From: Patescibacteria group bacterium
GTDB taxonomy: Bacteria; Patescibacteriota; Minisyncoccia; UBA6257; GWB1-50-10
Reading direction: 5' to 3'
Assembly (NCBI GenBank): GCA_038065455.1
Contig: JBBTQX010000004.1
Coordinates: 5,157-69,156 of the forward strand
Length of the DNA stretch: 64,000 nucleotides
In this document: piece by piece, positions 34,254 to 64,000 of the stretch
Numbering within the stretch: position 1 is the stretch's first letter
Layout of the letters: each line of letters begins with the position of its first letter
Notes under the pieces: model-generated
What the model was told of the DNA's origin: nothing
What the model saw: the letters and a program-made list of their open reading frames with translations, nothing else
Database searches by the model: none
Made by a program: the position numbers and the translations under genes

Positions 34254-34331
34254 CAATCCCGTTAGAAATCACGCCCGCGCGCAAGCGCGCCCCGCAGGGG
34301 CCTGCGGGGCGGGCTATTTCTAACGGGATCA
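34254..34331. mobile_element. small element bounded by inverted repeats (copy c), with a GC-rich hairpin core
   Basis: The ends are ATCCCGTTAGAAAT ... ATTTCTAACGGGAT, a 14-bp perfect inverted repeat. The core is GCCCGCCCCGCAGG-GGCC-CCTGCGGGGCGGGC. The flanks are ATCAAT and ATCAAC. Confidence 0.6.
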
Positions 34332-35335: not shown

Positions 35336-38300
35336 ATGAATAAAGAAAAAGAAATACCGGAAGAAAGAAGGGACAAGATTCAGGCGCAGGAGATTACCTC
35401 CGAGCTCCGCGATTCCTATCTGGACTACGCGATGTCCGTCATCGTCTCGCGGGCTTTGCCCGACGTGCGCGACGGCCTGAAGCCGGTTCAGCGGAGAATT
35501 CTCTGGGCGATGTGGGACGACAGCCTGACGCACAGCGCCAAGTTCCGGAAATCGGCCAATGTCGTGGGTGCGGTCTTAGGGCGCTATCATCCGCACGGCG
35601 ACATCGCACTTTACGACGCGATGGCCCGAATGGCCCAGGATTTTTCCCTGCGCTATCCGCTAGTTGACGGGCAAGGCAATTGGGGATCGATCGACGGGGA
35701 TTCTCCCGCAGCAATGCGTTACTGCGTAACCGGAAACACTTTAATCATTACCGAAAAAGGACTGGTTCCGATTGAAAGTTTAGGAGATTCAAAAAATCTG
35801 GACGGCGAAGAAAAAAATATTCAAATAAAAATACTTTCTAAAAATAGGGGGGTTAACAAAGCCGTGAAATGGTTTGACAGCGGCAGACATCCAACGATTA
35901 AAGTGGAAACGAATCACGGATTTTCCTTGACGGGCAGTGAAAATCATCCGATTCTCACTTGGATAAAAAATCCCGCCACTGGCGCTCCTTCTTTCTCGTG
36001 GAAACTTTTAAACGATGTAAAAGAAGGAGATTTTGCCGTTATTGAAAGAACTTCCGATTTGTTATGGCCGGAAAAAAATATCAACCTGGCTTCTTATTGG
36101 CCAAATGAAAATAGGCGCTGGGATAAAAAAATCCTACCCAGAGAGTTGGATGAAAATTTAGCGTTCGTGCTTGGGGCGTTAATAGCGGAGGGAACAATCA
36201 AAGAAAATGAGATTGAATTCTGTAACAGCGATCCCGAATTCATAGATGAATTTAAGGCGAAATGGCGGAATGTTTTCCCCGATTGCCGCCTCCATCAGTT
36301 TTACCGCAAGCCGAATTCTTTTGGCAAAAAACCTTACCAAACGCTGGAGATACACTCCCGGCAAGTGGCGGCTCTATTGAGAAATGTCGGTCTTTTACCC
36401 GTGAAATCCGCCAAAAAAACGATTCCTAATCTGGTTCTTCAATCACCAAAGTCAGTTGTCGCTTCTTTCTTAAGGGCCTATTTCGAAGGAGACGGCAGTA
36501 TCAGCTGGAGCGGGAGAATGAACGAACTTAGCGCGGTTTCCACAAGCGAGAAACTTATTAAAGAAATTCAAATAGCACTTTTGAGATTTGGGATAGTATC
36601 CGCGAAAAGATTTGATAGATTAAAAAGCAATCACAAGCTCTATATTCGCGGCCTGAAAAACTACGCGCTTTTCAAAAAGCAGGTAGATTTTGCTGTTTCG
36701 GTCAAAAAAACAAAGTTGAACGGCTTATTGGAAAAAACCGAAAGAGATTCTTCATTGACGGACTTCGTGCCATTTTTATCAGAATTCATAAGGAAAAATA
36801 CGGAACGAGATTATAAAAAAGAAAGAATAACCAACCATTACAATTTTGACCGTTATTCAAACCTAAAAAACAGAGAAGCGGGCATATTAACTGCGGTTCG
36901 CTCCGAAATAAAAACCAAAACCGCCGGAGTCCTGGAATCCCTACTTTCAAACAATTACCTTTTTGACCCGATTGTAAAAGTGGAAAAAGGCGGAATTGAA
37001 AAAGTTTATTCGGTAAAAGTCGCCAGTGATTGCCACTCTTTCGTTGCGAACGGTTTTATAAATCACAACACGGAGGCGCGCCTTTCGCGGATAGCGGAGG
37101 AACTTCTCACGGATATCGAAAAAGAAACGGTGGATTGGCAGCCGAACTACGACGCCACCCGCGAAGAACCGAAATTCCTGCCGGCCCGGCTTCCGAATCT
37201 GCTTTTGAACGGCACGGTCGGCATCGCGGTCGGTATGGCGACATCCATTCCGCCCCATAATCTGGGCGAGATTGCGGACGCGACCGCTCATCTAATAGAG
37301 CACCCCGACGCCGATATAAAAGAATTGATGCAATTTATGCCCGGGCCGGACTTTCCGACCGGCGGAATCATCTACGACAAAAAAGCGCTCGAGGAAGCCT
37401 ACACGACCGGCAAGGGTTCGGTCACTATCCGCGCCAAAGCTGAGATAGAAGAAAGAACCCATTCAAAACACACCGGTCAGGCGTCATCGGGCAGCTTCCA
37501 GATAATCATCTCCGAAATTCCGTATCAGGTGAATAAATCCGATCTCATCACCAAGATGGCCGAACTCGTGACGGACAAGAAAATCGAGGGTATCCGCGAC
37601 ATTCGCGACGAATCCGACCGTGAAGGCCTCCGCATCGTCGTGGAATTAAAGAACGACTCCTCGCCCCAGAAAATACTGAATCAGCTCTATGAATATACCG
37701 AACTCCAGAAGAATTTTTATTACAACGTTCTCGCGCTCGTAAACGGCCTTCAGTCGGAGATACTATCGCTCAAAGACGTGCTCTCGGAATATCTGGAACA
37801 CCGGAAAATAGTAATTCGCCGCCGAACGGAATTCGACCTCAAAAAAGCCCAGGACCGCGCCCATATTCTCGAAGGCCTCGTTAAGGCACTCGATAACATA
37901 GACAAAATAATCTCGACCATCAAGAAATCGAGAGACCGCGAAACGGCGAAACAGAGTCTGGTCAAGAATTTCAAACTCTCACCTCTCCAAGCCGACGCCA
38001 TTTTGGAAATGAAACTTCAAAGTCTTGCCGCCCTCGAACGGGAAAGACTGGAGAACGAGCTTAAGGAAAAAAGAAAGCTTATCGCTGAGCTCGAGTTGAT
38101 ATTAAAACAGCCGAAGAGGATATTAGGCATCATTAAAGATGATCTTCTGGATCTCAAAAAAATCTTCGCTGACCCGCGCCGGACGAAAATCATCGCGACC
38201 GGACTTAAAGAATTCAAGGAAGAGGATCTAATTCCTCAAGAAGAGGCTATTATCACCTTCACTCAAGACGGCTATGTGAAAAGGATGCCGCCGACGACCT

Positions 38301-39172
38301 TCCGCGTGCAGAAGCGCGGCGGCAAGGGTCTTATCGGTTCCGATCTCAAGGATGAAGACTTGATCAACCAACTCCTTTCGGCCGACACGCACGATAACAT
38401 TATCTTCTTCACGACCGGCGGAAAAGCCTTTCAAACAAAAGTTTACGAAATACCGGTGGCCGCTCGCACCGCGAAAGGCAAATCAATCCATAACTTCTTG
38501 GAGATTCCGCCGAACGAAAAAGTGAGTGCGATTGTCACCTATCCGCAGGCGCACGCCGACGGCAAGCACTTTATGGTAATGGTGACGAAAAGCGGCGTGG
38601 TGAAGAAAACCCCATTGGCGGATTTCGAAAATGTCCGCCGGAGCGGCATCATCGCCATCAAATTGAGCGCGGGCGACATTCTGGGCTGGATAAAGCTTTC
38701 CGAAGGCGATGATCAGATAATCCTCGTAAGCGCTCTCGGACAGGCTATCCGTTTCAAGGAAAAAGACATTCGGGGTATGGGTCGCGCGGCCGCGGGCGTA
38801 CGCGCCATCCATCTCAAGAAAAGCGACAGCGTGAGCGGGCTTGATATAATAAAGAAAGAGAATTCGGACAAATCAAGAATGGTGGCGGTGATGGCGAATG
38901 GCTTCGCTAAACAGACGGCGCTCAAAGAGTATAAAATCCAGCGCCGGGGCGGCTCGGGAACAAAGACGGCCAAGATTACGGATAAGACGGGGCCGGTCAT
39001 CGGAGCGCATATCGTGGACGATAAAGTAGAGGAGGTGTTGGCTTTTTCGACTAAGGGCCAAGCCATCCGGACACCGCTCAAAGATATCAGAGTATTGAGC
39101 CGCGCCACGCAAGGGGTGAAGATTATGAACCTGGAAAAGGGGGATAATCTGGTGGGAATAGTGTGCTTATAG
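35336..39172 (+). CDS. gyrA: DNA gyrase subunit A containing an intein
   Basis: The N-extein reads ..[22 protein letters not shown] 449-aa intein follows. The C-extein reads [11 protein letters not shown].., then the GyrA core and the beta-pinwheel C-terminal domain. The extein is 829 aa. Confidence 0.9.
35723..37069 (+). other. GyrA intein with LAGLIDADG homing endonuclease domain, inserted after the catalytic Tyr
   Basis: It begins CVTGNTLI (Cys1). [14 protein letters not shown] and [12 protein letters not shown] are the LAGLIDADG blocks. It ends ..VANGFINHN, followed by Thr at +1. It sits at the same site as the Mxe GyrA intein. Confidence 0.85.
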
Positions 39173-45385: not shown

Positions 45386-45469
45386 GGGCAGGTGGCGAAA
45401 TTGGCAGACGCACCAACTTTAGGAGTTGGCGATCGCAAGGTCTTGTGGGTTCAAGTCCCACCCTGCCCA
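45386..45469 (+). tRNA. tRNA-Leu (anticodon UAG), type II with long variable arm
   Basis: The acceptor stem is GGGCAGG/CCTGCCC. The anticodon arm is CCAAC-TTTAGGA-GTTGG. The long variable arm is CGATCGCAAGGTCTT. The T-arm is GTGGG-TTCAAGT-CCCAC. Confidence 0.85.
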
Positions 45470-45643: not shown

Positions 45644-46231
45644 TTAGTTGATTTGTTTTAAACTTCCCGCCTTGCTGATTTCAAAAATTTCGACAAAATC
45701 AACCATATTAAACTTATCCAAATCATCGATGAATTGTTTTGGGATTTTTACTTTGCCAACCCATACGCTTTTCTGAATCATTTTCAAGTCCAGGTTTTTT
45801 AAAACTTCTCTAATCCAGGCTCGCTTTGATCTTTCTTTTTCCGGAATATCGAAAACAACAATGGTAAATTGACCCTTTTCTTTCGAATAGCTCATAGGCC
45901 GAGGCAATCTTTTTATATTATCCAATTTCAATTTTTCAAGTTTTTCTTTTCCTTTTCCGGTAATGGAGAAGAAATTTGTCTTGTTTCTCGCTTCAACTTT
46001 TATAAGGCCGTCTTCTTTTAGTTTATAAAGAAGGTTGTAATATTTTTGTTTAATTTCCGCTTCTTTTTTTCTTCCGGCTCTATCGTCTTTTATTTTATAT
46101 GTCTCGTGTTCCATTCTACCAATGGAGGCACCGTAACCGGCATTCAAGAAAGCATTGAAAAAATCAAAACTATTAATTGTCATATCTCCTAAAACCTCCA
46201 AAACCTTCAATAAAATATCTCCTTTAGCCAT
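45644..46231 (-). CDS. PaaX-like transcriptional regulator family protein
   Basis: FTIVVFDIPEKERSKRAWIREVLKNLDLKMIQKSVWVG resembles the PaaX C-terminal domain pattern W.G.W.lv..ipe..R..R..lr..L...Gf..lq.SVw. It is a paralog of the gene at 55294..55863. Confidence 0.5.
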   Translation of the reverse strand: MAKGDILLKVLEVLGDMTINSFDFFNAFLNAGYGASIGRMEHETYKIKDDRAGRKKEAEIKQKYYNLLYKLKEDGLIKVEARNKTNFFSITGKGKEKLEKLKLDNIKRLPRPMSYSKEKGQFTIVVFDIPEKERSKRAWIREVLKNLDLKMIQKSVWVGKVKIPKQFIDDLDKFNMVDFVEIFEISKAGSLKQIN

Positions 46232-46316: not shown

Positions 46317-47210
46317 CTATTTGCGGCGGCGGGCGTGGAAGGTCTGATGGATTTCCTTGAGCTCCTTATTGGTCAGGTGGGTATAGACCTGGGTGGTCGA
46401 AATATTGGCGTGGCCCAGAAGCGACTGGACCGAACGCAGGTCGGCGCCGTTTATAAGAAGGTCGGTGGCAAACGAGTGTCGGATTTGATGGGGGTGGACT
46501 TTTTTCGGGATGCCGGCTTTTTTGGCGTAGAAAGAAGTTAATCTCTGAACGGAACGGGGATTTATCCGGCCGATTACCTTGTTCTTTTTGGTCAGGCTCG
46601 CGAAAAGGTATTCCTCGGTATCGCTTCTTTTTTCCAAATAGTTTTTAATGGATTTTTTGGCCCCCTCCGACAGAAAAACCACCCGGAGCTTGTCGCCTTT
46701 TCCGCGCACGGATATTTCGCCCCGCTCCAAATCCAGATAGCGGGGGAGGGCGCAAAGTTCGGAGAGCCGGAGACCGGTCGAGAAAAATGTTTCCAAAATT
46801 GCCCGGTCCCGAAGCGAGCGCAAATCCTTCCCGTCGGGAGCCGAAACCAGGCGCTCCAATTCTTTATAGTCCAGGGTTTCAATGTCGCGTCGGGAAACCC
46901 TCGGCAACTCTATTTTTTCCGGAGCGAGCACTTTTATATCGCGCTTCAGGAGATATTTCAAAAGATTGCGAATGGCGATTACGTAATAACTCTGGGTATT
47001 TTTTTTCAAATCTTTGCGGGAAAGATTTACCCGGAAGTCGCGCACCGCATCCTCCGTAATATCCTTAATGGAACGGATTTTCTGGTTTTCCAGAAAAAAT
47101 TTCAGGTAGCGCCCATAGTTCTCGCGCGTCTTCCGCGAGCGGTTTCTTTCCACCTCCAGATAGTCCAGATAATCCTTGAGATATTTTTCCGCTTCGGTCA
47201 TTTGTTTCAT
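46317..47210 (-). CDS. tyrosine recombinase (XerC/XerD-like phage-integrase family)
   Basis: The C-terminal catalytic motifs are present (HQIRHSFATDLL, LLGHANISTTQVYTHL). The N-terminus has a SAM-like domain. It is 297 aa. Confidence 0.8.
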   Translation of the reverse strand: MKQMTEAEKYLKDYLDYLEVERNRSRKTRENYGRYLKFFLENQKIRSIKDITEDAVRDFRVNLSRKDLKKNTQSYYVIAIRNLLKYLLKRDIKVLAPEKIELPRVSRRDIETLDYKELERLVSAPDGKDLRSLRDRAILETFFSTGLRLSELCALPRYLDLERGEISVRGKGDKLRVVFLSEGAKKSIKNYLEKRSDTEEYLFASLTKKNKVIGRINPRSVQRLTSFYAKKAGIPKKVHPHQIRHSFATDLLINGADLRSVQSLLGHANISTTQVYTHLTNKELKEIHQTFHARRRK

Positions 47211-51932: not shown

Positions 51933-53471
51933 ATGCCGGCGGTTCCCAAACTTTATTCCGCAGAATTGGATGGTGTAAACGCCGAACTTATCGAAGTGGA
52001 GGCCGACTTGAATGTCGGCCTCCATTCTTTCAACATCGTCGGTCTCGCCGACAAGGCCCTAACGGAAGCGAAGGAGCGGGTTAATTCCGCCCTCAAAAAT
52101 TCCGGCATTAAGCCGCCCTCAAAAGAGAATCGGCGCATCACCATAAATCTCGCGCCGGCCGACGTGAAAAAAGTCGGCTCGAGATTCGACCTGCCTGTCG
52201 CGCTCGCTTATCTTTTGGCAAGCGAGCAATTAAAAAGTTTTGAAACGAAAGATAAGATGTTTATCGGCGAGCTTTCGCTCGACGGCGCCTTGCGTCCGGT
52301 CGCGGGCGCTTTGAACGCGGCGCTTCTCGCCCAAAGAAAAGGTTTCAAAGAAATATTCGTTCCGGCGGGAAACGCGGTCGAGGCCGCGATTCTCGAAAAC
52401 ATCAAGGTTTTTGGCGTGAAAAATCTGGTCGAAATAATCGGGCACCTGGAAGGAACCGCGCCCATCGCTCCGCAAATAAAGACCGAGATGACTCCCGGAT
52501 ATTCGGGGGTTTTCGTGAAACTGAGCGAGGTCAGGGGCCAGGCGGCGGCCAAACGGGCGCTTATAATCGCCGCGGCGGGCGGCCACAATCTGCTCTTCTC
52601 GGGTCCGCCCGGCACAGGAAAAACAATGCTGGCCCAGGCGATGAATTCGATTATTCCACCGCCCTCCCTCGAAGAAACAATCGAAATAACGGAGATTTGG
52701 AGCGCCGCCGGCCTTTTGAATCGGGCGAGTCCGGTTATCGATTTCCGCCCTTTTCGGGCGCCGCATCACAACGCCTCGCTTATATCCATTATCGGGGGCG
52801 GTTCGATTCCTAAACCGGGCGAGATAAGTCTGGCTCACCGGGGCGTGCTCTTCTTGGATGAGATGCCGGAATTCCATCGCGACGCGCTCGAGAGCCTGCG
52901 CCAACCGCTCGAATCCGGCTCGGTAAGCATCGCCCGTTCCAAAAAATCGCTGGTTTTTCCGGCCCGATTCATCCTTGTTGCCGCGATGAATCCCTGCCCC
53001 TGCGGATATTTCAACGACCCGGAAAAAGAATGCCGGTGCACGGCGAACGAGGTATTCCGCTACCACAAAAAGATTTCCGGGCCACTAATGGACCGGATTG
53101 ATATCCAACTTGAAGTGCCAAGGATACCCGTCGAAGAACTGCGACGAGAAGAAAACAGCGAAAACGATGAACCAGTCAGAAAAAAAATTAGGGAGGTGAG
53201 AGATGTTCAGCGGGAAAGATTTAAAAAAAACGGCTTCAAAATATTCACGAATGCCGAAATGTCTTCGCGCCAGACGGAACAAATTGCGAAACTCGAGACT
53301 GGAGCGGAAAATTTCCTCAAGGAAACTTTGGAAAAGAATTTCATTTCCATCCGCGGCTATTACCGCATCCTCAAAGTTTCCCGAACCATCGCCGATCTCG
53401 AAGAAAGTTTGGAAATAAAAACGGACCACTTGGCGGAAGCGTTCCAGTATAGGCTGAAAATTGGGGAATAA
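51933..53471 (+). CDS. comM: YifB/ComM family Mg-chelatase-like AAA+ ATPase
   Basis: The N-terminal domain resembles the Lon protease domain. The Walker A motif is GPPGTGKT. VLFLDEMPEF is present. Confidence 0.85.
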   Translation: MPAVPKLYSAELDGVNAELIEVEADLNVGLHSFNIVGLADKALTEAKERVNSALKNSGIKPPSKENRRITINLAPADVKKVGSRFDLPVALAYLLASEQLKSFETKDKMFIGELSLDGALRPVAGALNAALLAQRKGFKEIFVPAGNAVEAAILENIKVFGVKNLVEIIGHLEGTAPIAPQIKTEMTPGYSGVFVKLSEVRGQAAAKRALIIAAAGGHNLLFSGPPGTGKTMLAQAMNSIIPPPSLEETIEITEIWSAAGLLNRASPVIDFRPFRAPHHNASLISIIGGGSIPKPGEISLAHRGVLFLDEMPEFHRDALESLRQPLESGSVSIARSKKSLVFPARFILVAAMNPCPCGYFNDPEKECRCTANEVFRYHKKISGPLMDRIDIQLEVPRIPVEELRREENSENDEPVRKKIREVRDVQRERFKKNGFKIFTNAEMSSRQTEQIAKLETGAENFLKETLEKNFISIRGYYRILKVSRTIADLEESLEIKTDHLAEAFQYRLKIGE

Positions 53472-54335
53472 TTATTTGCTGACTGCAAAGGGATTTTTCG
53501 CGCCGAAAACCTCGAAATGAAGATGGCATCCCGTCGGGCCGTGCGTGTTGCCGGTATTTCCCATTATGCCAACTTCTTCGCCGCGGCTTACGTATTGCCC
53601 AATCTTCACGAGAACCTTATCCAAGTGAGCGTAGCGGGTTTTCACGCCGTTTGGATGTTCAAGAAGAACAAAGGTTCCGTAGCCGTTGTTCCAGCCGCTC
53701 GCGCCATCTCCCAAAACACTGTCCGAAATCACAAGACCTTCCGCCGCAGCATGCACAGACGTACCGCACTGATTCGCGATATCCACCGCATTAGCATTAT
53801 GGAGCTGGCCCCAATTCCAGCCGATTGCCGGCAAAGCGAAATAATCCTTGAGATCGGGGAGAATACCATCCACGGAAACGGCTTGAATCGCCGACTTGTC
53901 CTCCAGAGGCGAAACCACGATTGTATCGCCTTGTTTTATCGTCTTCACTCCCGGATTAAGCTTCTTGAGAGCGTCCGCCGAAAGGCCGAGGTTCGCGGCA
54001 ATCTTCTGGAAAGTATCACCCTTTCTCACTTTGTATTTTTTGAGGCCGTCGCCCAGGAATATCAGATTGGTAAGAGGATCCGAGGCGCCGGAAACAGCCG
54101 TACCCTCCGCCAAAAAAACGTTGTTTTCGGCCGTGTCGGCCGGAGCGCCCGGATAAACGACATCACCCGAAGCAGAGGAGCGTCCGGCCCCCAATTCCTC
54201 TACCGGACCGCCCGAACTCCAGGCCGCCGGCCTCTCATAGGCTTCGGTGTTGCGCCAAAACCAGAAAACGGACGCGTTCAAAACCAGGAAAGCGGGGATA
54301 AAAAGGAGCGACCAGAAACTGGTCGTTTTGAACAT
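53472..54335 (-). CDS. M23-family peptidase with LysM domain
   Basis: The LysM domain reads YKVRKGDTFQKIAANLGLSADALKKLNPG. The M23 active site reads HLHFEV, and GNTGNTHGPTGCH is present. Confidence 0.85.
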   Translation of the reverse strand: MFKTTSFWSLLFIPAFLVLNASVFWFWRNTEAYERPAAWSSGGPVEELGAGRSSASGDVVYPGAPADTAENNVFLAEGTAVSGASDPLTNLIFLGDGLKKYKVRKGDTFQKIAANLGLSADALKKLNPGVKTIKQGDTIVVSPLEDKSAIQAVSVDGILPDLKDYFALPAIGWNWGQLHNANAVDIANQCGTSVHAAAEGLVISDSVLGDGASGWNNGYGTFVLLEHPNGVKTRYAHLDKVLVKIGQYVSRGEEVGIMGNTGNTHGPTGCHLHFEVFGAKNPFAVSK

Positions 54336-55196: not shown

Positions 55197-55257
55197 AAAC
55201 AAGCAAAAACCGTAAAAACAGAAAAATATTAGTAATTCATTATAATTTAGAATATTG

Positions 55258-55288
55258 CAAAGTTATACTGTCATGACATAATAACTTA
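55258..55288. promoter_or_regulatory. imperfect palindrome CAAAGTTATAcTGTCATGACAtaATAACTTaG overlapping promoter-like TATAAT/TAGAAT elements upstream of the second PaaX-like gene
   Basis: It is about 26 bp with an ATGTCATGACAT core. Its perfect twin lies downstream of the gene at 55876-55909. Confidence 0.5.
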
Positions 55289-55293
55289 GTAAA

Positions 55294-55863
55294 ATGCGAA
55301 TTAGGAGAAACTCACAACCCTATCGCCTTCTTAAATACCTTGCTATAGGCACCGGTGTTTTGACACTCTCTCTTATAGCGCCGGTAAGCGGCGCGATGCT
55401 GGTGAAAAATTTTATCCGCTATTATTTCAGGAATAAAAAGTTTCAAAAATATCGATTTCTAAATGATTTGAAAAATCTCCAAAGTAGAGAATTGGTATCG
55501 TATAAAGAGGAGGGGAGAGGAGTGGTGAAAATCACCCTTACTAAGAACGGCCGGGAGAAAATACTGCGGTACCAAATTGATGAAATAAAAATAAAAAAGC
55601 CCGCCCGCTGGGATGGGCAATGGCGGCTGATAATGTTTGATATACCGCATTACAAACGCATTGCCCGCGACGCTTTTCGGACAAAGCTGAAAAATTTGGA
55701 ATTCTATCCTATTCAGAAAAGCGTATTTATCACTCCTTATCCCTGCGAGAATGAGATAGATTTTATAGCGTCTATTTTTGATGTAAGAAAAGAGGTTCTT
55801 ATCCTTTATGTGAGCCGATTTGAAGGGGAGGAGAAATTCAAAAATCACTTCAAAATATACTAA
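55294..55863 (+). CDS. PaaX-like transcriptional regulator family protein (paralog)
   Basis: WDGQWRLIMFDIPHYKRIARDAFRTKLKNLEFYPIQKSVFITP resembles the PaaX C-terminal domain pattern. Confidence 0.5.
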   Translation: MRIRRNSQPYRLLKYLAIGTGVLTLSLIAPVSGAMLVKNFIRYYFRNKKFQKYRFLNDLKNLQSRELVSYKEEGRGVVKITLTKNGREKILRYQIDEIKIKKPARWDGQWRLIMFDIPHYKRIARDAFRTKLKNLEFYPIQKSVFITPYPCENEIDFIASIFDVRKEVLILYVSRFEGEEKFKNHFKIY

Positions 55864-55875
55864 ATATTCGCTATT

Positions 55876-55909
55876 ACAAAGTTATTATGTCATGACATAA
55901 TAACTTTGT
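55876..55909. promoter_or_regulatory. perfect 34-bp palindrome ACAAAGTTATTATGTCATGACATAATAACTTTGT
   Basis: It is read directly from the sequence and lies downstream of the PaaX-like gene. Confidence 0.5.
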
Positions 55910-56018
55910 AAAAATGTAGAAAAAAGGGAGAGGGGGAATGAAGGAGAAAGATGGTGATAGAGGAGGATGGGGAGTGGGGAGAGAGAAAGAAAAAAGGAAA
56001 AAGTGGGGGCTGTTTGAT

Positions 56019-56381
56019 TTAAAATAAACTAACTCCTGCTTTCCAGATGGTACCTTCCGCCGTAATGGGTACCGGAAGCACGCAAACCCCTCCCGGGATG
56101 GCGGTTCCCAAGACTTTCGCGCCGGGTTTAAGAATGAAATTTTCGTAAATCACGGAAACACCCGGCTGATAAAGAAAAACTCCGGGTCTAGGTTGCCCAA
56201 CCGTAATAAGAATGCCATTAGTGCAAGGAACGGCGACTAAGATATTGCCCCCGAAAGGAATGATCAGTCCTATTGCTGAAGCGAATTGAGGGAAAATAAG
56301 CATACCGACAGCAAGAAAAAAGAAAGAAAAAGAAGATATAATAAAAAACATTTTCACTCCTCTGTAAAACATGTTAGGCAT
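56019..56381 (-). CDS. hypothetical secreted or membrane-anchored protein (120 aa), Gly/Pro-rich
   Basis: The N-terminus has a hydrophobic signal or anchor segment. No recognisable motif was found. Confidence 0.4.
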   Translation of the reverse strand: MPNMFYRGVKMFFIISSFSFFFLAVGMLIFPQFASAIGLIIPFGGNILVAVPCTNGILITVGQPRPGVFLYQPGVSVIYENFILKPGAKVLGTAIPGGVCVLPVPITAEGTIWKAGVSLF

Positions 56382-56462: not shown

Positions 56463-57260
56463 ATGAAAAAAAGGAAAATAATCTCCGCCATTATTTTATT
56501 GAGCGGTTTGGCATTTTTTCTGCTAATCGTCAATTCCACCGGAAAAAATCAAGAATTTCCGGCCATGGTAGCCCTGAATAAGAATAACTCTGAATCCGGT
56601 TTTGACTACCGAACCGATAAAAATCGGGACATTATCCCGAGCGCGATTTCCGGAACAAATATGTCTCCCGCGACCGACAATTTAACCGAATTGCTCGCTA
56701 AAAACATTTCCAGTGGAATTCTCACGGTAAACAGTAAACTAGTATCCGAACAAGGAACTTCTTCCATTGCCCTTCCTTCATCTAATTCGTTGGGCAACTC
56801 CATAGAGCAGTCTATCGAGCAAAATATGAAATTCCCGGTCTTCGGCTTAAAAGATATCAGAATCGGCTCTGATAATTCGCCGGAGGCCCAACTCGCTTAT
56901 TTCAACACAATCGGGGAAATATCCAAGAAAAACTTTGGGAATTTCAAAACCTCCATCGTGACAATGCTCAATAATTTAATTGAAAATAACGATTCCACCG
57001 CACTCGCCAAATACGCTAGAATTGCAAATAAACAAGTCGCTGATTTTCTTGCGCTTAAAGTCCCGGAACAACTTTCCGCTTGGCATCTACAAAACCTGAA
57101 TTTATGGCAGAAGAAATTCACGGCCTATTCCGCGATGGCTAATTTGAGTTCCGATCCGCTCAAAATGATTATCGCCTTCAAAGAGGTTCCGAATATCGTG
57201 CAGGAAACATTGAATTTGGATTCAGTGATGAAAGAAAAATATTTAAAATTGATACCATAA
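56463..57260 (+). CDS. hypothetical N-terminally anchored exported protein (265 aa)
   Basis: The signal or anchor segment reads IISAIILLSGLAFFLLIV. It lies in a T4SS-like neighbourhood. Confidence 0.45.
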   Translation: MKKRKIISAIILLSGLAFFLLIVNSTGKNQEFPAMVALNKNNSESGFDYRTDKNRDIIPSAISGTNMSPATDNLTELLAKNISSGILTVNSKLVSEQGTSSIALPSSNSLGNSIEQSIEQNMKFPVFGLKDIRIGSDNSPEAQLAYFNTIGEISKKNFGNFKTSIVTMLNNLIENNDSTALAKYARIANKQVADFLALKVPEQLSAWHLQNLNLWQKKFTAYSAMANLSSDPLKMIIAFKEVPNIVQETLNLDSVMKEKYLKLIP

Positions 57261-58981
57261 TGGATTTATTGATGAAAAAAATTATTTCTTTGGTTCTTTT
57301 AACGTCTGTTTTGGCGGGAACCGCATTAATGGTTCCTCAAAAAGCTCAAGCGGCTGATCCGATAACCTGGGCGGTTTGCGGAGCATATGAAGCAACAATA
57401 GGGAAATTGTTCGGGGCTGCTGAAGATACAGTGAGTGGAACCATATCGGGTGCTGCGAATAAAATAGTGAACAAAGTAGTGAGCATTGATGCTGTTCCAG
57501 TTTCCGATAGTGCAGTTCAAAGCGGTCAAAAAGCGCAGGTCGCGAGCGATAAAAAAACGGAATGTGAGCGTTTTGTAGCGGATGTCGCGCTTGCCGCTTT
57601 GAAAAAACGACTTTTAAATATTATGACCCAGGATGTCGTAGAGTGGATAAATAATGGGTATGGGCCAGAAGGACCTAAATTCACCCAAGACTTCGAAAAA
57701 GTTTTCACCGACGCCGGGGACCAAGCTATAGGTGATATTCTTCAAGAATATGCCTTCACTGCTCCGCTTTGTAAACCTTTTTCTTTTGATATCACTTTCC
57801 AACTCCAGCAGCCGGCTCCGCTCGCCGAAAGAGCCCAATGTACGCTCACGAGCGTCATTAAAAGCTTTGAAAGCTACCGGGACGACTTCAAGAACGGCGG
57901 CTGGATCGGCTATCAGGAGCTTCTAAAACCTCAAAACAACCAATGGGGAGTGGAGCTTCTGACTCAAAGCGAGATAACGAGCCGCACGGCTCTTAAGATA
58001 AATTCCAGCGCTCTAAAAGAAACTGTTAATGTTGGATTCGATTCTTCGGAATGCACCGGCGGATGGGATTTAATGGATAAAATAACTAAACAGCTGGCAA
58101 AAGCTGGTTCCGAAATAGACCAAAATACAATAAATTTTTATGGTCATATAAATAAGGGTGATGTTTATCATGGGAAGACTTGGGACGATCCAAAATTAGC
58201 ACCTCCTTCTCCGACGAAAAGTAGTAAAAATTTCTTTTATAGTTGTGCTGGTACCACAATCACGACACCCGGTCGGACGATTGCGGCCGCTTTGGAAAAA
58301 TCCATTCTTCCAGAATTTGATCTTATAATAAACTCAAAAGACCTTACCAATTCTCTCGCTATTATCGCCGACGCGGCTATCAATGACATTATAAAAAGAG
58401 GGGTAAGAGGAATACAGAATTTCAATAAACCCGTTCCGAAAAATCCAGAAAATGAGAAGTTTTCCGATTCCCAAAGAAACAGGGTTAATCAGGCATCCGG
58501 GGATTACGATAAAATCCAAGGGCAGATAAGCAACAGTAAAACGACAGGTGCTTATCTTGACCAGATTAATCCGGCCGCCAACACCATTCTCGCCGCCTCA
58601 TCGATTCTCAAAAATGCTTCCGATAAAAACGAAGAAGCGATAAAAACCGGTCAAGATACTCTTGCCTGTATTGCCCAATCAAATACTCACGCCGATAGAC
58701 CTGCCATTCAAGCCGCCGTGGACAAAGCGAATTTAAACCCCGTGCTCATCACCGCAAAATCAACAGAAATTAAAACTAATTCCGCTTCCATACAAACCCT
58801 TATTTCCCAAATTAACGCGGGTAATTGTGATACCTATTACCAACCTCAATCTTGCCAATCTCAAATAGATGGCAAAAGATCTGCCGCCGGACAACTTAAT
58901 ATCGACGCTAATAACCTTCTAAATTCTGTTCAAGATACACTAACCAATCTGGAAGAATTAAAAAAGAAAGTTTGCTCTTAA
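57260..58981 (+). CDS. hypothetical secreted protein (573 aa)
   Basis: The signal peptide ends ..AQA-AD. The protein is Gln/Asn/Thr-rich and shows no enzymatic motif. Confidence 0.45.
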   Translation: MDLLMKKIISLVLLTSVLAGTALMVPQKAQAADPITWAVCGAYEATIGKLFGAAEDTVSGTISGAANKIVNKVVSIDAVPVSDSAVQSGQKAQVASDKKTECERFVADVALAALKKRLLNIMTQDVVEWINNGYGPEGPKFTQDFEKVFTDAGDQAIGDILQEYAFTAPLCKPFSFDITFQLQQPAPLAERAQCTLTSVIKSFESYRDDFKNGGWIGYQELLKPQNNQWGVELLTQSEITSRTALKINSSALKETVNVGFDSSECTGGWDLMDKITKQLAKAGSEIDQNTINFYGHINKGDVYHGKTWDDPKLAPPSPTKSSKNFFYSCAGTTITTPGRTIAAALEKSILPEFDLIINSKDLTNSLAIIADAAINDIIKRGVRGIQNFNKPVPKNPENEKFSDSQRNRVNQASGDYDKIQGQISNSKTTGAYLDQINPAANTILAASSILKNASDKNEEAIKTGQDTLACIAQSNTHADRPAIQAAVDKANLNPVLITAKSTEIKTNSASIQTLISQINAGNCDTYYQPQSCQSQIDGKRSAAGQLNIDANNLLNSVQDTLTNLEELKKKVCS

Positions 58982-58996
58982 AATAGGAGTAATAAA

Positions 58997-60985
58997 ATGG
59001 AAAAAATAATTAGAAATAAAAAAATTGTATTATTCTCGCTTGGAACAATTTTTTTTGTTTCTTTGTTTATCATTCCCCATTTTGCCGGAGCGCAAACCTC
59101 GATTATTACCGACGCGGCAGTCGGAATTTTCGTCACGGCCTTCAAGGTTTTCGCCTATATTTTAAACACCATCCTCGGCTTCCTTTTTATGCTTGCCGGC
59201 GGGCTCGTGAATATCGCGATGGATTTGAACGCCAAAATTTTGGATAAAACGAACACGCTGGTCAGTATCGGCTGGACAATCACCCGAGATGTGGCGAACC
59301 TCGGCTTCGTCCTGATTATGATAGTGATGGCAGTCGCGACCATCGTCCGCTACGAAAAATATAGCGTTCAGAAGCTCTTACCGCTCCTGATCGGCGCCGC
59401 CATTCTCGTGAACTTCAGCCTTACGATTGCGGGGGTTTTTATCAGCTTCTCGGATACAGTTTCGAAAGTTTTTTTGAAGAGACTGGTCGTGGAGGGCGCT
59501 ACCGGCCGGAACCTCACCGATGCCATCGCCGGCGCTTTCAGTCCTCAACGACTGCTGATGAAAAATACCGACAATCCGGAGCCGCCCGATCCAGCCTCGC
59601 AGGGGAATTTTTTGAGCGACGTATCGGCGGCGGCCCTTATCAGCATCTCCGGATTGGTTTTCAACGTTATCTTCATGGCCATCGCGGTGATTTCAATGGC
59701 CGCTTTAGCGCTTATGCTCCTTTACCGCTATATTTATCTTTCCTTCCTACTTATCCTTTCGCCGCTCGCCTGGATGTTCTGGGTCTTTCCCGACTTGGAA
59801 TATCTCTATAAGAAATGGTGGGAGAATTTCATAAAGTGGTGCTTCTTCCTGCCAGCTGTCACTTTCTTCCTCTATTTGGCGGTGGAGACTGCCTTCCAGA
59901 TGGAAAAAAACTCGATTTTCATCAACGCGACCGGCTTTACGGGCGCATTGACATCTATTATGCAGCAAGGCGCGCAGATGATAGTGCTCGCGGGACTGCT
60001 TCTGGGCGGATTGATTGTGGCCCAAACTCTAGGGATTAAGGGGGCAGAAGGATCTATGAAGCTAGCCGCGAAAATGGGCGAAGGAGCAAGATCGATGGCT
60101 GGACGAAAAGCCTTGCAATATGGAAGTTATGCTTTGCGGAGAAAGGGAGAGAAGCCGGATTCCAAATCTGCCGCAGAATGGCTGGTTGATAAAGCTAAGA
60201 GCGTGAAAATCCCCGTTGTAAAACAAGCGGTCGGCTATTTAGCCCGCGGAGCCACCAGAATTTCAACCGCGGGAGGAGAAGATATTTTGAAGGGACACGA
60301 TAGCGCCGTGAGTAAAATGTCTACTGCCGATGCCACGGCGGCCCTACTGACTGCTTCCGGACCGCGCCGAATAGCCCTTGTTAAAAAACTTTCCAAGGAA
60401 AAACAGTTGGGTAATCTGGATATGGGAGAAATAATAAACGGGGGCACGAGATCTCTTTTTACAAGATTCAATCAAGGAAGAGAATTCGGCGACGTTGAGA
60501 AGAACGGCCTAATGACGGTGGATATGATGGAGGCGCTGAAAAACAATAACGAGGAGGGTCTTCAGATAGCCACAGATAAACTAGTTGGCAGCATGACCAG
60601 AAAAGACTTGGAAACCGCTGCGGTAAAAGATTTGTTCAGCGGCAAAAAGAAGTTTGGCTTTGAAATAAACGACGTAAAAAACCTTGCCCAAAATTTTGCC
60701 CGGGCTCTGGAGTCGGAAAATCCTGCTCTCGTACCGAGCATGATACCGAAATTTGATTCTCCCTCCAGAAAAAACTTTACCGACACCTATAATGATGTCT
60801 TGGATGAAAGCTTGAAAATGGCTACTCCGGGCAGCCCGGCATACGATGAGATAAAAAAGATGAAAAAACAATTTGATACGGTGCTTGCCAACTATACAAT
60901 GGGGTTTTCTCCCGTCGAAGAGACAAGCGGCGGAGGAACAACCGCCAGCACGCCACCGCCAAGCGGAGGGGCTCCGAAACCCTGA
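58997..60985 (+). CDS. polytopic membrane protein, possible VirB6/TrbL-like T4SS channel component
   Basis: It has about six TM helices in the first 340 aa. The C-terminal domain is long and hydrophilic and ends in a Gly/Pro/Thr tail. The call rests on topology and gene context only. Confidence 0.35.
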   Translation: MEKIIRNKKIVLFSLGTIFFVSLFIIPHFAGAQTSIITDAAVGIFVTAFKVFAYILNTILGFLFMLAGGLVNIAMDLNAKILDKTNTLVSIGWTITRDVANLGFVLIMIVMAVATIVRYEKYSVQKLLPLLIGAAILVNFSLTIAGVFISFSDTVSKVFLKRLVVEGATGRNLTDAIAGAFSPQRLLMKNTDNPEPPDPASQGNFLSDVSAAALISISGLVFNVIFMAIAVISMAALALMLLYRYIYLSFLLILSPLAWMFWVFPDLEYLYKKWWENFIKWCFFLPAVTFFLYLAVETAFQMEKNSIFINATGFTGALTSIMQQGAQMIVLAGLLLGGLIVAQTLGIKGAEGSMKLAAKMGEGARSMAGRKALQYGSYALRRKGEKPDSKSAAEWLVDKAKSVKIPVVKQAVGYLARGATRISTAGGEDILKGHDSAVSKMSTADATAALLTASGPRRIALVKKLSKEKQLGNLDMGEIINGGTRSLFTRFNQGREFGDVEKNGLMTVDMMEALKNNNEEGLQIATDKLVGSMTRKDLETAAVKDLFSGKKKFGFEINDVKNLAQNFARALESENPALVPSMIPKFDSPSRKNFTDTYNDVLDESLKMATPGSPAYDEIKKMKKQFDTVLANYTMGFSPVEETSGGGTTASTPPPSGGAPKP

Positions 60986-60994
60986 TAATACAAA

Positions 60995-61843
60995 ATGATT
61001 AATCCTTTAAAAATAACCCAGGGGCAATTCGACCGGCGATGGGATGAAATGCCAGAAAGTCTTCGTGAACTTCTTTATTCTCCGGAACACGCCGAAATAA
61101 TCAGACTCATCTGCGAAAATCACCACCTGAGTGAAGAAAAAATAGAGACGGTTCTTGGTGTTGTTGGGAGTATTATTGCTGGATTTATTCATATTCAAGA
61201 TCTGGATCATCAAATTGTGGTTGTTCTTGATTTAAATCCCGAGTTGGCGAAAACGCTAGCTCTCGAAATCAATGAGCGGGTATTGGTTCGTTTCGAAAAA
61301 GAAATTGAGGATGTTTTTCAGCCGGTTTTGACGACTGGGGGAGCAAAAAAGAAAGAGAAAGAGAATAATAATTTAACGAACGTTAAGATTGTGGACGAAG
61401 ATGTACCTGGGCCCGTTTCTTTGTCGGAAAAGCCTTTTATTCTTCATCAAGAAAAATCCGAGGCTCCGGAAGAGAAGAAATCGTCTTTCAAAGGATTTTC
61501 GATGCCGTTCGGATTTTTCAAATCTAAAAATCAGCCAACTCCCGCCGGAAAATCGACAAAGGTGGAAATAGAAACTTCCGGCGACTCTCCGAAAAACGAA
61601 AAAAGAACGGTGAACTACAATGAGCTCCGTACCTCGCTCTCGCCCTTTGAAGTTGAACAAAATTTCATCAATCCCGTTAAAAATGAACCGGTTTCCGCGC
61701 TAATCGTTCCGATTCCGGAAATAAAACCCGTTCCGGCGGCGCCGGAAATATCCCCGCTCTCGGAAGAAAAGAAAAGCGAGATATTCGGCACCATCAAAAA
61801 GCCCCAGCCGAAAACGGAGGGAAATACCATCGATCTGCGATAA
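60995..61843 (+). CDS. hypothetical protein (282 aa)
   Basis: No recognisable motif was found. The C-terminus is Pro/Glu/Lys-rich. Confidence 0.4.
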   Translation: MINPLKITQGQFDRRWDEMPESLRELLYSPEHAEIIRLICENHHLSEEKIETVLGVVGSIIAGFIHIQDLDHQIVVVLDLNPELAKTLALEINERVLVRFEKEIEDVFQPVLTTGGAKKKEKENNNLTNVKIVDEDVPGPVSLSEKPFILHQEKSEAPEEKKSSFKGFSMPFGFFKSKNQPTPAGKSTKVEIETSGDSPKNEKRTVNYNELRTSLSPFEVEQNFINPVKNEPVSALIVPIPEIKPVPAAPEISPLSEEKKSEIFGTIKKPQPKTEGNTIDLR

Positions 61844-61853
61844 TTTTATAACC

Positions 61854-62336
61854 ATGAATTTCCAAGTCCCGCAATTTATAGAACAAAAGCCCAAAATCGT
61901 CGGGTTTCTGACCCTGCCCCAATTTCTCTATGTCGCGGGAGCCGCTATCTTAGGCTACATATCTTTCTATGTTTTCAATTTCTTCTTTGCCATTATTATC
62001 ACTGTTTTTGCCGGGCTTATCGGCATCGCTTTCGCTTTCGTAAAAGTGAACGGCCAAGAATTTCCCAAAATCATCGTGTCGGTCTTCGGTTATTTATGGG
62101 GACCCCGCCTTTATACCTGGCAAAGACAAACAGCCCGCGAATCCGTGAATATCAACGAGGTGGAGGAACTGCGGGGCAAGATGAGCCTCCAGGAAAAATT
62201 GAAATCCGTCGCTTTGAAAATCACTACCGGCAAATTCTTCAAGCCGGCGGACGAAGTTAGCGGGGACGGTGAAAAATACGAAACGGTGATGTATCTGACG
62301 GGAGAAAGACGAAGAGCTAAAAAAGTGGACTACTAG
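61854..62336 (+). CDS. small two-TM membrane protein, VirB3-like candidate
   Basis: KIVGFLTLPQFLYVAGAAILGY resembles the VirB3 (L)FKGLTRP..F motif. It sits directly upstream of the VirB4-like gene. Confidence 0.4.
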   Translation: MNFQVPQFIEQKPKIVGFLTLPQFLYVAGAAILGYISFYVFNFFFAIIITVFAGLIGIAFAFVKVNGQEFPKIIVSVFGYLWGPRLYTWQRQTARESVNINEVEELRGKMSLQEKLKSVALKITTGKFFKPADEVSGDGEKYETVMYLTGERRRAKKVDY

Positions 62337-62395
62337 GCAATTTTTAATTTTTGAATTTTTAAATAAATTATAATGTCTGAATTTTTAAACACTTT

Positions 62396-62740
62396 ATGAA
62401 ATATGATTTGGAAGAGAGGACGGCTAAATTTGGAGAAAGTGTCATATTTTTCATTAAGAAAATTCCTGAAAATCGGATAAACCAGCCACTAATAAACCAA
62501 GTCATAAGGTCTGCTACGAGCATTGGGGCTAATTATATGGAGGCTAACCAGGCAAGCTCTAAAAAGGATTTTAGAAATAAAATAAGAATTTCCCAAAAAG
62601 AATCTAATGAAACTAAGCATTGGATTAGAATGATGGCCGCCGCGAACCAGAACCATAAAGAAGAGTGTATGGTTTTATGGAAAGAGGCCCACGAATTAAC
62701 CTTGATTTTTGCTAAAATATCAAAAAATTGCGGTGTTTAA
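62396..62740 (+). CDS. four-helix-bundle protein (23S rRNA intervening-sequence protein family)
   Basis: RSATSIGANYMEANQASSKKDFRNKIRISQKESNETKHWIRM resembles the family pattern. It lies in an AT-rich islet. Confidence 0.55.
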   Translation: MKYDLEERTAKFGESVIFFIKKIPENRINQPLINQVIRSATSIGANYMEANQASSKKDFRNKIRISQKESNETKHWIRMMAAANQNHKEECMVLWKEAHELTLIFAKISKNCGV

Positions 62741-62803
62741 AAACTAGAATTTAGACATTATTTAAAAATTACAAAAATTACAAAATTATAATACAATAAG
62801 GAT

Positions 62804-63439
62804 ATGTCCGATACACCGCAACCATCCCAGCAATTCGTTCCGATAAAAGAGATTCGGGACGGCGTCGTTTATCTTAAAAATGGCGGGCTTCGCCAGCTCC
62901 TGATAGTGAGCGGGGTGAATTTTGAATTGAAATCCGAGGCCGAACAAAACCTGATTCTCGGCGGCTTCCAGAACTTCATCAACTCGCTCGATTTTTCCGT
63001 TCAAATCTTCGTCCATTCCCGCAAAGTGAATGTGGATAATTATCTGGCAAAAATGGACATGCGGAAAAAAGACGAGCAGAATGAGCTTTTAAAAATCCAA
63101 ATAGAGGAGTATGCGAATTTCATCCGGAGTTTCGTGGACCAGAACGCCATTATCAGCAAGAATTTTTTCATAGTGGTGCCCTACGACCCGATTGCCGCTC
63201 CGGCCGCCGCGAAAGGATTTCTCGGCCTTTTCGGCAAAAAAACTTCCGATAACGAGAAGAATGTTATGGAGAAAGAAAACTTGGAACAGCTCCGCCACCG
63301 GACGGAGCAGGTGATAGAAGGATTAAGCCAGACCGGAATCCGAGCCGCTATTTTGGAAAACGAAGAAGCAACGGAACTTTTTTATAATCTGTACAATCCC
63401 CAGCTCGTCGAGAAAAGAACTTTGGATATAGCCAAATAA
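62804..63439 (+). CDS. VirB4/TrbE-like conjugation ATPase, N-terminal segment (split gene)
   Basis: VPIKEIRDGVVYLKNGGLRQLLIVSGVNFELKSEAEQNLILGGFQNFINSLDFSVQIFVHSRKV...ELFYNLYNP resembles the N-terminal region of the Gram-positive VirB4 type (PrgJ/TcpF/ConE-like). Confidence 0.55.
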   Translation: MSDTPQPSQQFVPIKEIRDGVVYLKNGGLRQLLIVSGVNFELKSEAEQNLILGGFQNFINSLDFSVQIFVHSRKVNVDNYLAKMDMRKKDEQNELLKIQIEEYANFIRSFVDQNAIISKNFFIVVPYDPIAAPAAAKGFLGLFGKKTSDNEKNVMEKENLEQLRHRTEQVIEGLSQTGIRAAILENEEATELFYNLYNPQLVEKRTLDIAK

Positions 63440-63440
63440 A

Positions 63441-63572
63441 ATGAATCCCGTTAGAGACATAAGCCTTATGAAAAATATGATTACCAAACAATCAATGAAA
63501 TCCAATAAAGTCGAGTTAACTAATCCATCACGGATGCGCTTTTTGAGCGCATCCTGTCTCTAACGGGATGAA
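63441..63572. mobile_element. small element bounded by inverted repeats (copy e), lying between the two halves of the VirB4-like gene
   Basis: The ends are ATCCCGTTAGAGAC ... GTCTCTAACGGGAT. The hairpin GGATGCGC-tttttga-GCGCATCC sits next to the right arm. ATGAAT is directly repeated on both flanks. The right flank supplies the ATG of the downstream ORF. Confidence 0.6.
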
Positions 63573-64000
63573 TATTAAAATTCCTAAAGCGTACAAGCCG
63601 GGCGCCGAAGATATTCCGAACGTAATCGCTCCAGCGGGGCTGGAGATCGCGAGCAATTATATTAAGATAGGCGATTATTATTCCAAAACTTTTTTCGTTT
63701 TTACCTATCCCAGATATATTTCGACCGGCTGGTTCTCGCCGCTCGTAAATCTTCCGGAAATGATGGATATTTCCATATTCATCCACCCGATGGATACCGC
63801 GCTCGCGCTCCGAAACCTCCGAAAGAAAGTGGCTCAAGTTGAAGCTGAAATAAGCGAAAAAGAGGAAAAAGGTATTGTCCGCGACCCCGTACTCGAAACG
63901 GCCTATCAGGACATAGAATCGCTCCGGGATTCTCTTCAACAAGCACGGGAAAAACTCTTTGAGGTGGGTGTTTATATCACGATTTACGGGAAAAACCTGG
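63568..64000 (+). CDS. VirB4/TrbE-like conjugation ATPase, continuing segment (partial at window end)
   Basis: It begins MNIKIPKAYKPG. IKIGDYYSKTFFVFTYPRYISTGWFSPLVNLPEMMDISIFIHPMDTALALRNL resembles the VirB4 N-domain core. Confidence 0.55.
   Translation, partial: MNIKIPKAYKPGAEDIPNVIAPAGLEIASNYIKIGDYYSKTFFVFTYPRYISTGWFSPLVNLPEMMDISIFIHPMDTALALRNLRKKVAQVEAEISEKEEKGIVRDPVLETAYQDIESLRDSLQQAREKLFEVGVYITIYGKNL

Follow-up and report, generated by a model that had tools for sequence, protein, structure and literature searches.

The window analysed in this study, a 64,000-nucleotide (nt) stretch of DNA from a Patescibacteria group bacterium (GCA_038065455.1, JBBTQX010000004.1, positions 5,157-69,156 of the forward strand), ends in what we take, with a probability of about 0.9, to be a chromosomal, conserved operon for a type IV secretion system (T4SS) of the Patescibacteria type, of which the front two-thirds are included. 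Systems of this type have already been described across the Patescibacteria, or Candidate Phyla Radiation (CPR), and the locus adds no new kind of system. Judging by the literature, the most likely task of the encoded machine is an exchange with a host bacterium that depends on contact, in the form of protein export or of uptake of host material, and not conjugation. An initial annotation of the window had placed seven open reading frames (ORFs) of a T4SS-like module on the + strand; all of them were found at their positions, six as complete ORFs and the last as a frame that starts with the ATG at 63568 and is still open where the window ends, and the membrane topology proposed for their products was borne out by a hydropathy scan. 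Exact-protein look-ups retrieved the identical locus from several independent groundwater (Hainich) and other assemblies, and a contig carrying this identical locus (L003) supplied 2.5 kb of sequence past the window. For comparison, 80 loci from species-representative genomes were fetched by their VirB4 protein, and all neighbouring proteins were mapped. The features of the window are collected in Table 1.

The complete 583-amino acid (aa) ATPase at the window end, read from L003, scored 381.7 bits (E 6.9e-114, cut-off 325) with the NCBIfam model NF045971, the VirB4-like conjugal transfer ATPase of the CD1110 family. The next-best model was the VirB4 of Mycoplasma integrative and conjugative elements (ICEs) with 301.9 bits, and TraC and VirB4_CagE followed at lower scores. 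A PDB sequence search with the joined 211- and 583-aa pieces of the ATPase returned VirB4 chains only, headed by the VirB4 C-terminal domain of the monoderm Thermoanaerobacter (4AG5, E 1.8e-41) and followed by TrwK of R388 (E 6e-6). The 583-aa sequence displays a Walker A (KSGSGKS) and a Walker B (LLVIDEAW) motif, and both pieces are free of transmembrane segments in the hydropathy scan. With these matches the ATPase, which had been proposed as VirB4-like, is assigned to the VirB4 family. All 8,000 scored candidates for the 583-aa protein had E ≤ 1e-10; among the matches listed, nearly all homologues were 580-595 aa long and 77-100% identical, and those with a named organism belonged to Jorgensenbacteria, Brennerbacteria, Paceibacterota, Minisyncoccia or an unclassified 'bacterium'. 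Together with the related loci, these homologues bear out the CPR/Patescibacteria host that had been proposed. The best VirB4 profiles are those of Firmicutes and Mycoplasma, and among solved structures a monoderm VirB4 comes closest; these best matches would be in keeping with an ancestry within the mating-pair formation class FATA (MPF-FATA).

The N-terminal domain of VirB4 is encoded by a separate gene in the window. Its 211-aa product matched, in addition to TrsD/TraD, four VirB4 models over 100-180 positions at their N-termini, all of these matches being below the full-length cut-offs. Our own Pfam scans of this protein gave no match, even at E ≤ 10; Pfam hits computed by others and on record, which also supply some of the assignments for the 662-aa protein described below, list it as TraC-like. 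Among 69 species-level genomes holding both the TrsD-like and the VirB4 parts, the two are separate genes in 63, typically with a 4-nt overlap or up to ~30 nt apart, and form one fused ORF of 716-795 aa in the other six (L061, L062, L064, L065, L081 and L082). Over their whole length the fused proteins can be aligned with the 211 plus 583 aa, the break corresponding to a linker, and the 211-aa protein aligns with residues 1-225 of a fused VirB4 of 795 aa. In the window the two ORFs are parted by a 128-nt spacer, and this succession of 211-aa ORF, spacer and 583-aa ORF recurs in independent assemblies of several samples. Since no assembly departs from this arrangement, the two pieces of the ATPase do not stem from faulty sequencing. 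An origin of the split in a frameshift or a sequencing error was rejected, as the split is reproducible, conserved and reads TAA-A-ATG once the repeat that fills the spacer is removed; this is the usual tight coupling of the junction where the element is lacking. The 'split' VirB4 is hence best described as a stable gene fission, the normal two-gene form in the lineage, which coexists with fused forms. The initial annotation was thus right about the two pieces, whereas damage to the ATPase is not what they reflect.

Directly 5' of the TrsD-like gene in 69 loci lies a gene of the PrgI family, named for the VirB3 of pCF10. The 160-aa protein of the window passed the Pfam PrgI cut-off, showed a weak match to TraL (E 3.5e-4, below cut-off) and has the two transmembrane segments expected from the initial annotation, so that the order VirB3-then-VirB4 holds and its position is conserved. 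The assignment of the 662-aa membrane protein as VirB6/TrbL-like was approached from several sides. It begins with a signal-like segment, continues with ~6-7 hydrophobic helices up to residue 347 and ends in a hydrophilic tail of ~300 aa; since this C-terminal part forms a large helical domain of ~300 aa, the protein is called an 'extended VirB6'. Our own Pfam scans returned no match, even at E ≤ 10, a scan of 39 orthologues gave just 2 weak TrbL matches, and a profile of the orthologues retrieved nothing relevant among PDB sequences. Hidden Markov model searches left a mixed picture of the module, VirB4 and PrgI/VirB3 passing their cut-offs and VirB6/TrbL being negative or marginal. Pfam hits computed by others list TrbL_3 for the 662-aa protein and for most of its listed homologues, and TrbL/VirB6 for a few. 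In a Foldseek search with a model of the protein, the best PDB matches were TrwI/VirB6 chains (probability 0.98-0.99, E weak at 0.14-0.3), and the top fold matches were to the T4SS proteins DotA and TrwI. The fold match and the Pfam hits by others support the earlier proposal and point to a VirB6-like channel or stalk subunit.

The pilin array that had been proposed upstream at 40.4-41.9 kb was upheld. All four of its ORFs passed the Pfam model PF18895 (T4SS_pilin) with 35.2-47.3 bits (cut-off 26.6), and two of them also matched TrbC/VirB2, one above the cut-off. Each predicted pilin consists of a leader followed by two hydrophobic segments in the hydropathy scan, and the paralogues are mutually 26-44% identical. 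In relatives, a protein of ~310-430 aa with a T4SS_pilin domain is encoded 3' of virB4.

Of three further proteins of the operon, those of 265 and 573 aa are lineage-specific. The first gene product (265 aa) has orthologues at the same position in 31 loci (~22-43% identity) and gave no Pfam, NCBIfam or PDB-sequence match. The 573-aa protein, which has no known domain, belongs to a very widespread family; at E ≤ 1e-3 it comprises 4,554 sequences that each represent a 50%-identity cluster. The family shares invariant cysteines and a GGW.GYQELLKPQNN motif and carries C-terminal PKD or fn3 domains in a few members; these properties are consistent with a surface-exposed protein. An AlphaFold2 model of it was poor, with a predicted local distance difference test (pLDDT) score of 52 and confidence in the C-terminal helices only, and its Foldseek matches were coiled-coil noise and were discarded. 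The 282-aa protein, for which orthologues were found between VirB6 and VirB3 in 40 loci, likewise gave no Pfam, NCBIfam or PDB-sequence match, and conserves the short motifs PFILHEE, GFSxPFGFFK, KRVVHYSE and EGNxxDLR. Profiles of the three families found no credible match among PDB sequences. Beyond the window, L003 continues after the 583-aa ORF with a 114-aa membrane protein and then a 219-aa secreted protein, so that extending the contig yielded the full VirB4 and a further exported protein.

The gene order across ~80 species-level genomes is comM, LysM-M23 (opposite strand), rsmA, the 265-aa and 573-aa proteins, VirB6-like, the 282-aa protein, PrgI, TrsD-like and VirB4, followed by a membrane protein of ~120 aa, a secreted protein of ~220 aa, the pilin-domain protein of ~310-430 aa, a protein of ~389 aa, yidC (opposite strand) and dnaA. 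Identity to the window proteins falls from VirB4 (~80%) through TrsD-like (~60%), PrgI (~50%) and VirB6-like (~40%) to the exported proteins (~25-35%). Of the two flanks, the window itself contains comM, M23 and rsmA, and yidC and dnaA were seen in 48-52 related loci, ~4-5 kb beyond virB4, from which the proximity of the window operon to dnaA is deduced. Because the housekeeping flanks recur across ~80 species, the operon is regarded as vertically inherited and chromosomal and not as a mobile conjugative element, and it appears to lie near the replication origin. Comparative genomics thus added further T4SS parts on the extended contig and in the relatives to those of the window. The GC content of the operon is in line with the rest of the window, which is housekeeping in nature (aminoacyl-tRNA synthetases, proton-pumping pyrophosphatase, NusA, RecA, FtsH, GyrA, PNPase, FtsK). 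Rfam found only three tRNAs in the window; promoter and terminator scans barely exceeded the shuffled background, with a weak promoter-like site at 56415-44, just 5' of the first operon gene. As to neighbours named in the initial annotation, the M23/LysM gene and comM are indeed close by, whereas recA is not.

Table 1. Features of the T4SS locus and of its surroundings (positions are those of the window)
Feature	Coordinates	Strand	Remarks
First operon gene, 265 aa, N-terminal membrane anchor, lineage-specific	56463-57260	+	Hydropathy scan
Secreted protein, 573 aa, conserved cysteines, putative lineage-specific extracellular component	57260-58981	+	N-terminal signal-like segment (hydropathy)
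Extended VirB6-like polytopic membrane protein, 662 aa	58997-60985	+	
282-aa protein, no clear transmembrane segment, helical N-terminal region, low-complexity tail	60995-61843	+	
VirB3-like protein (PrgI family), 160 aa, two transmembrane segments	61854-62336	+	Pfam PrgI E 8.9e-7, 29.8 bits, cut-off 27
Four-helix-bundle / 23S_rRNA_IVP gene, 114 aa	62396-62740	+	Pfam E 4.4e-16; TIGR02436 E 2e-20
TrsD-like protein, VirB4 N-terminal domain as separate gene, 211 aa	62804-63439	+	NCBIfam TrsD/TraD E 4e-8
Palindromic repeat (miniature inverted-repeat transposable element/repetitive extragenic palindrome-like), fills the space from trsD-like stop to virB4 start	63440-63567	.	
VirB4 ATPase, first 144 of 583 residues	63568-64000	+	Window end cuts ORF; full ORF L003:3655-5406
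Four divergent VirB2-like pilin genes, 124, 133, 114 and 97 aa	40400-41921	+	~15 kb 5' of main operon
LysM + M23 peptidase	53472-54335	-	Pfam Peptidase_M23 E 2e-24, LysM E 1.5e-8
comM	51933-53471		Pfam hits on record
recA	26123-27166		~30 kb from operon
Chromosomal FtsK	23406-25487		Alpha + gamma domains; only FtsK-like protein

The LysM-M23 gene occupies the same place in 27 related loci. In a more distant relative with a fused VirB4 (L082), a single 263-aa protein combines T4SS_pilin and Peptidase_M23 two genes 3' of VirB4 (L082:12188-12979), and this fusion lends indirect support to the tie between the M23 peptidase and the T4SS. VirB1 candidates carrying M23/LysM domains have been described as virB4-associated in Paceibacteria (PMC12102498). 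It is plausible that the M23/LysM peptidase is a VirB1 analogue and a candidate cell-wall remodeller.

The locus agrees in kind with the T4SS clade previously described in Patescibacteria. VirB4 has been reported in 2,417 of 3,035 Patescibacteria genomes, where it forms a clade nested in MPF-FATA (PMC12102498, Quinonero-Coronel et al. 2025); TrsD, PrgI/VirB3, VirB6 and VirB2-like pilin arrays occur near virB4, TrsD being the most abundant component there, and the systems lie close to dnaA, dnaN and ksgA (PMC12102498). Shared between this clade (PMC12102498; PMC10633639, SEML1_0006-0019) and the window are VirB4 with a separate TrsD-like gene, PrgI/VirB3 and VirB6, divergent VirB2-like pilin arrays, the lack of relaxase and coupling protein genes in the vicinity, a place in the chromosome next to ksgA/rsmA and not far from dnaA, and an M23/LysM gene nearby as in the Paceibacteria class. 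No difference in kind was found; peculiar to the window are the distance of 15 kb between pilin array and virB4 and three insertions. Similarity extends to the MPF-FATA systems of monoderms, such as pGO1/pSK41 (TrsC, TrsD, TrsE), pCF10 (PrgH, PrgI, PrgJ) and the CD1110 family of the C. difficile conjugative transposon (CTn), the best-matching VirB4 family. In pGO1 a stand-alone TrsD, homologous to the VirB4 N-terminus, is followed by TrsE, which is the arrangement seen here, and the PrgI-type VirB3 and the lack of the outer-membrane core proteins VirB7, VirB9 and VirB10 are likewise held in common. In contrast to these systems, the locus revealed no relaxase, coupling protein or adhesin, is chromosomal with a conserved order and not a mobile element, has VirB2-like pilins, which the Gram-positive systems are without, and codes for exported proteins that are lineage-specific. 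The similarity of VirB4 to R388 Trw and Agrobacterium VirB (MPF-T) and to Legionella Dot/Icm is distant (TrwK, see above); unlike them, the locus, which belongs to a single-membrane envelope, revealed no VirB5, VirB7, VirB8, VirB9, VirB10 or VirB11. The earlier view that its composition falls outside the Gram-negative and Gram-positive paradigms was upheld (PMC12102498, PMC10633639).

The initial annotation had suggested a conjugation or DNA-uptake system, neither of which is supported by our data. A competence-type machine that takes up DNA, functionally like archaeal Ced or Helicobacter ComB, would suit organisms which cannot make nucleotides, and would agree with comM 3 kb upstream, with a weak CedB match of the ATPase and with the co-localisation of the T4SS with comF, recG and radA in the class ABY1 (PMC12102498). 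However, the ATPase scores 39.7 bits with CedB (cut-off 700) and 381.7 bits with VirB4, and the adjacency of comM reflects a shared order among unrelated housekeeping genes. Genetic data on a cultured member of the group, Southlakia epibionticum, also stand against this explanation. Its epibiotic growth requires the T4SS genes and the pilins (PMC10633639, Wang et al. 2023), whereas for competence it relies on comEC and type IV pili, and deletion of comEC abolishes competence with viability kept (review, PMC12857230). Since competence is lost there without loss of viability, the essential role of the T4SS is not natural transformation (PMC12857230). We thus consider a DNA-uptake function of the operon unlikely. 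In S. epibionticum neither a coupling protein nor a relaxase was recognised, and protein export or another role has been proposed (PMC10633639). In a 2026 preprint, tubular structures that may be T4SS pili are described where a cultured relative meets its host, and feeding on host RNA is proposed.

We regard it as very improbable that the operon is the transfer apparatus of a conjugative element, an ICE or plasmid remnant moving DNA to other cells. This explanation might draw on the best VirB4 matches, which are conjugation ATPases of Firmicutes and of Mycoplasma ICEs, on PrgI and TrsD, which are parts of conjugative plasmids, and on a tyrosine recombinase (46317-47210) and a tRNA (45386-45469) located 9-11 kb upstream. 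Yet no relaxase and no VirD4/TcpA-type coupling protein was detected among the large ORFs of the window that were scanned, nor among the mapped genes of the relatives or the Pfam hits on record for L010 and L011, where no scan was aimed at them. Relaxases have been found in just 103 of 3,035 Patescibacteria genomes (PMC12102498). Moreover, the same flanks (comM/rsmA and yidC/dnaA) in ~80 species indicate vertical inheritance and not an island, and the GC content is unremarkable within the window. As a separate observation, the tyrosine recombinase and the tRNA adjoin a PaaX_M/Cas2-like gene (45644-46231, - strand, in the segment 45536-46231), a paralogue of the one found next to the operon.

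Relative to its closest relatives (e.g. L012, VirB4 89% identical), the locus carries the three insertions mentioned above, with all reading frames intact. The first, of ~1.2 kb, lies between rsmA and the first operon gene and holds a PaaX_M/Cas2-like gene between palindromes of 45 nt, together with a small ORF that runs in the opposite direction. The PaaX_M/Cas2-like gene (189 aa, 55294-55863) is flanked by near-identical palindromes of 42-45 nt (55248-55918) and is missing at this place in relatives; an ORF located just 5' of the operon (120 aa, 56019-56381, - strand) has predicted hydrophobic segments and is a called gene in sister contigs, without a counterpart in related loci. The second insertion is the four-helix-bundle gene between PrgI and the TrsD-like gene, that is, between the VirB3-like gene and the first ATPase piece, where its ORF had been passed over in the initial annotation. 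This gene is not part of the T4SS. Nearly all relatives lack it at the PrgI/TrsD junction, and 4 of 82 loci have it elsewhere in the cluster, at different junctions. An identity as Avd of a diversity-generating retroelement appears unlikely: the repeat search showed no long repeat pair involving the gene, and no reverse transcriptase was seen in the ORFs scanned. Possible inverted repeats surround it (62341-62388 and 62736-62783). Small, selfish-looking ORFs, mostly of the 23S rRNA IVP family, are located at operon junctions that differ between species (L068, L077, L084, L085 and the gap in L073); the translation of the one in L073, read by eye, resembles the GxxExxY / PD-(D/E)XK type. The third insertion is the 128-nt palindromic element between the TrsD-like gene and virB4.

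In view of these insertions and of the 128 nt between the two ATPase ORFs, the locus might be taken for a decaying, non-functional T4SS remnant with a broken ATPase. Against this speak the two-gene form, which is the norm (63 of 69 species) with parts ~60% and ~80% identical, the intactness of all ORFs, the virB4 ATG that is regenerated by the repeat, and an arrangement identical across independent assemblies, and we see hardly any room for such a remnant. That the ATPase stems from another P-loop family (FtsK/HerA) and the membrane proteins from unrelated transporters can be practically dismissed, since its Pfam DUF87 (HerA central domain) match of 37.6 bits is about one-tenth of the VirB4-specific scores, neither an FtsK model nor an FtsK or HerA chain in the PDB sequence search was matched, and the top folds of the 662-aa membrane protein are the T4SS proteins DotA and TrwI.

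The palindromic element at the trsD/virB4 junction consists of terminal inverted repeats (ATCCCGTTAGAGACA / TGTCTCTAACGGGAT) and an internal GC hairpin, its predicted RNA fold reaching -43 kcal/mol (z -6.5), and Rfam gave no match for it. Four other copies are present in the window (3234-3356, 13500-13565, 32952-33060 and 34258-34327), making five in all, one of which (13500-13565) was observed to lie inside the ORF of a class I synthetase. Members of the repeat family measure 64-123 bp (one span 273 bp), have the termini CCCGTTAGA / TCTAACGGG and occur at further loci (L014, L015, L027, L038, L040 and L090); four other species likewise carry an element of this type between trsD and virB4. In several assemblies the sequence breaks off exactly 30 nt inside the element at 63440-63567, as is expected of a multi-copy repeat. 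In 12 of the 15 copies examined, from seven genomes, one end reads …TCTAACGG followed by GATGAA, its ATG being the start codon of a real gene, and the other end is usually preceded by ATGAA. This suggests that the repeat inserts at TGAA/ATGAA sites with the start codon rebuilt; the copy at 63440-63567 regenerates the ATG of virB4 at its own end. The long stem of the element pairs the region just past the trsD stop codon with the virB4 start codon, and it may be speculated that this stem couples the translation of virB4 to that of trsD.

Several points weigh against the interpretation of the locus as a T4SS operon of the Patescibacteria type. Three of the operon proteins in the window (265, 282 and 573 aa) are without detectable relatives of known function, and a VirB8-like part was absent from the Pfam, NCBIfam and PDB sequence searches with them (of the three, the 573-aa protein alone went through a fold search); VirB8 is rarely found in this T4SS class (PMC12102498) and hence is no strict requirement. 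The sequence-level VirB6 signal is weak in our own scans, and the MPF-FATA ancestry is judged from best profile matches and not from a tree. The proximity to dnaA comes from the relatives, the window and the sister contig stopping short of dnaA, and no substrate, effector or coupling protein was identified.

With these points taken into account, the T4SS operon would encode an apparatus derived from the conjugation machinery of single-membrane bacteria (MPF-FATA), without a relaxase nearby and equipped with VirB2-like pilins. By analogy with VirB-type systems, its motor would be the VirB4 ATPase, whose N-terminal domain is supplied by the separate TrsD-like protein, VirB3 would anchor TrsD and VirB4 at the membrane, and VirB6 would form the channel or the stalk base. 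VirB4/TrsD would then power the extraction of pilins and the assembly of a pilus or conduit through VirB6. Topology and conservation suggest that the exported 265-, 573-, 219- and ~389-aa proteins and the pilin-domain protein make up the extracellular portion, and the LysM-M23 peptidase may open the cell wall. A more specific proposal, which we put forward tentatively and rate as rather doubtful, is that the operon forms a pilus-bearing conduit that takes up host macromolecules (e.g. RNA or nucleotides) and does not export DNA, with the repeat acting as a translational-coupling or regulatory hairpin.

Two observations elsewhere in the window concern other genes. Arrays of the heptamer AAATCCG and its complement are located at 4977-5012, 10590-10818, 12114-12157 and 13287-13344, inside or at the edges of the ORFs of TsaD and two aminoacyl-tRNA synthetases. 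The 1278-aa ORF at 35336-39172 reads by eye as GyrA, into which a segment resembling an intein, in part similar to a homing endonuclease, is inserted.

Patescibacteria represent a large share of bacterial diversity, and few of their machines besides this T4SS have been shown to be indispensable to a life on host cells. The locus provides a clean example from Paceibacteria/Minisyncoccia, with the full conserved gene order, a VirB6 recognised by fold and a stable VirB4 fission beside fused forms. The repeats that abut start codons and the small ORFs inserted at junctions make up a minor feature of these genomes that may not have been described before. The conserved exported proteins stand out as targets for structural work, and, were the operon indeed to encode a conduit for uptake, the 573-aa secreted family would be a universal, still undescribed extracellular component of it.

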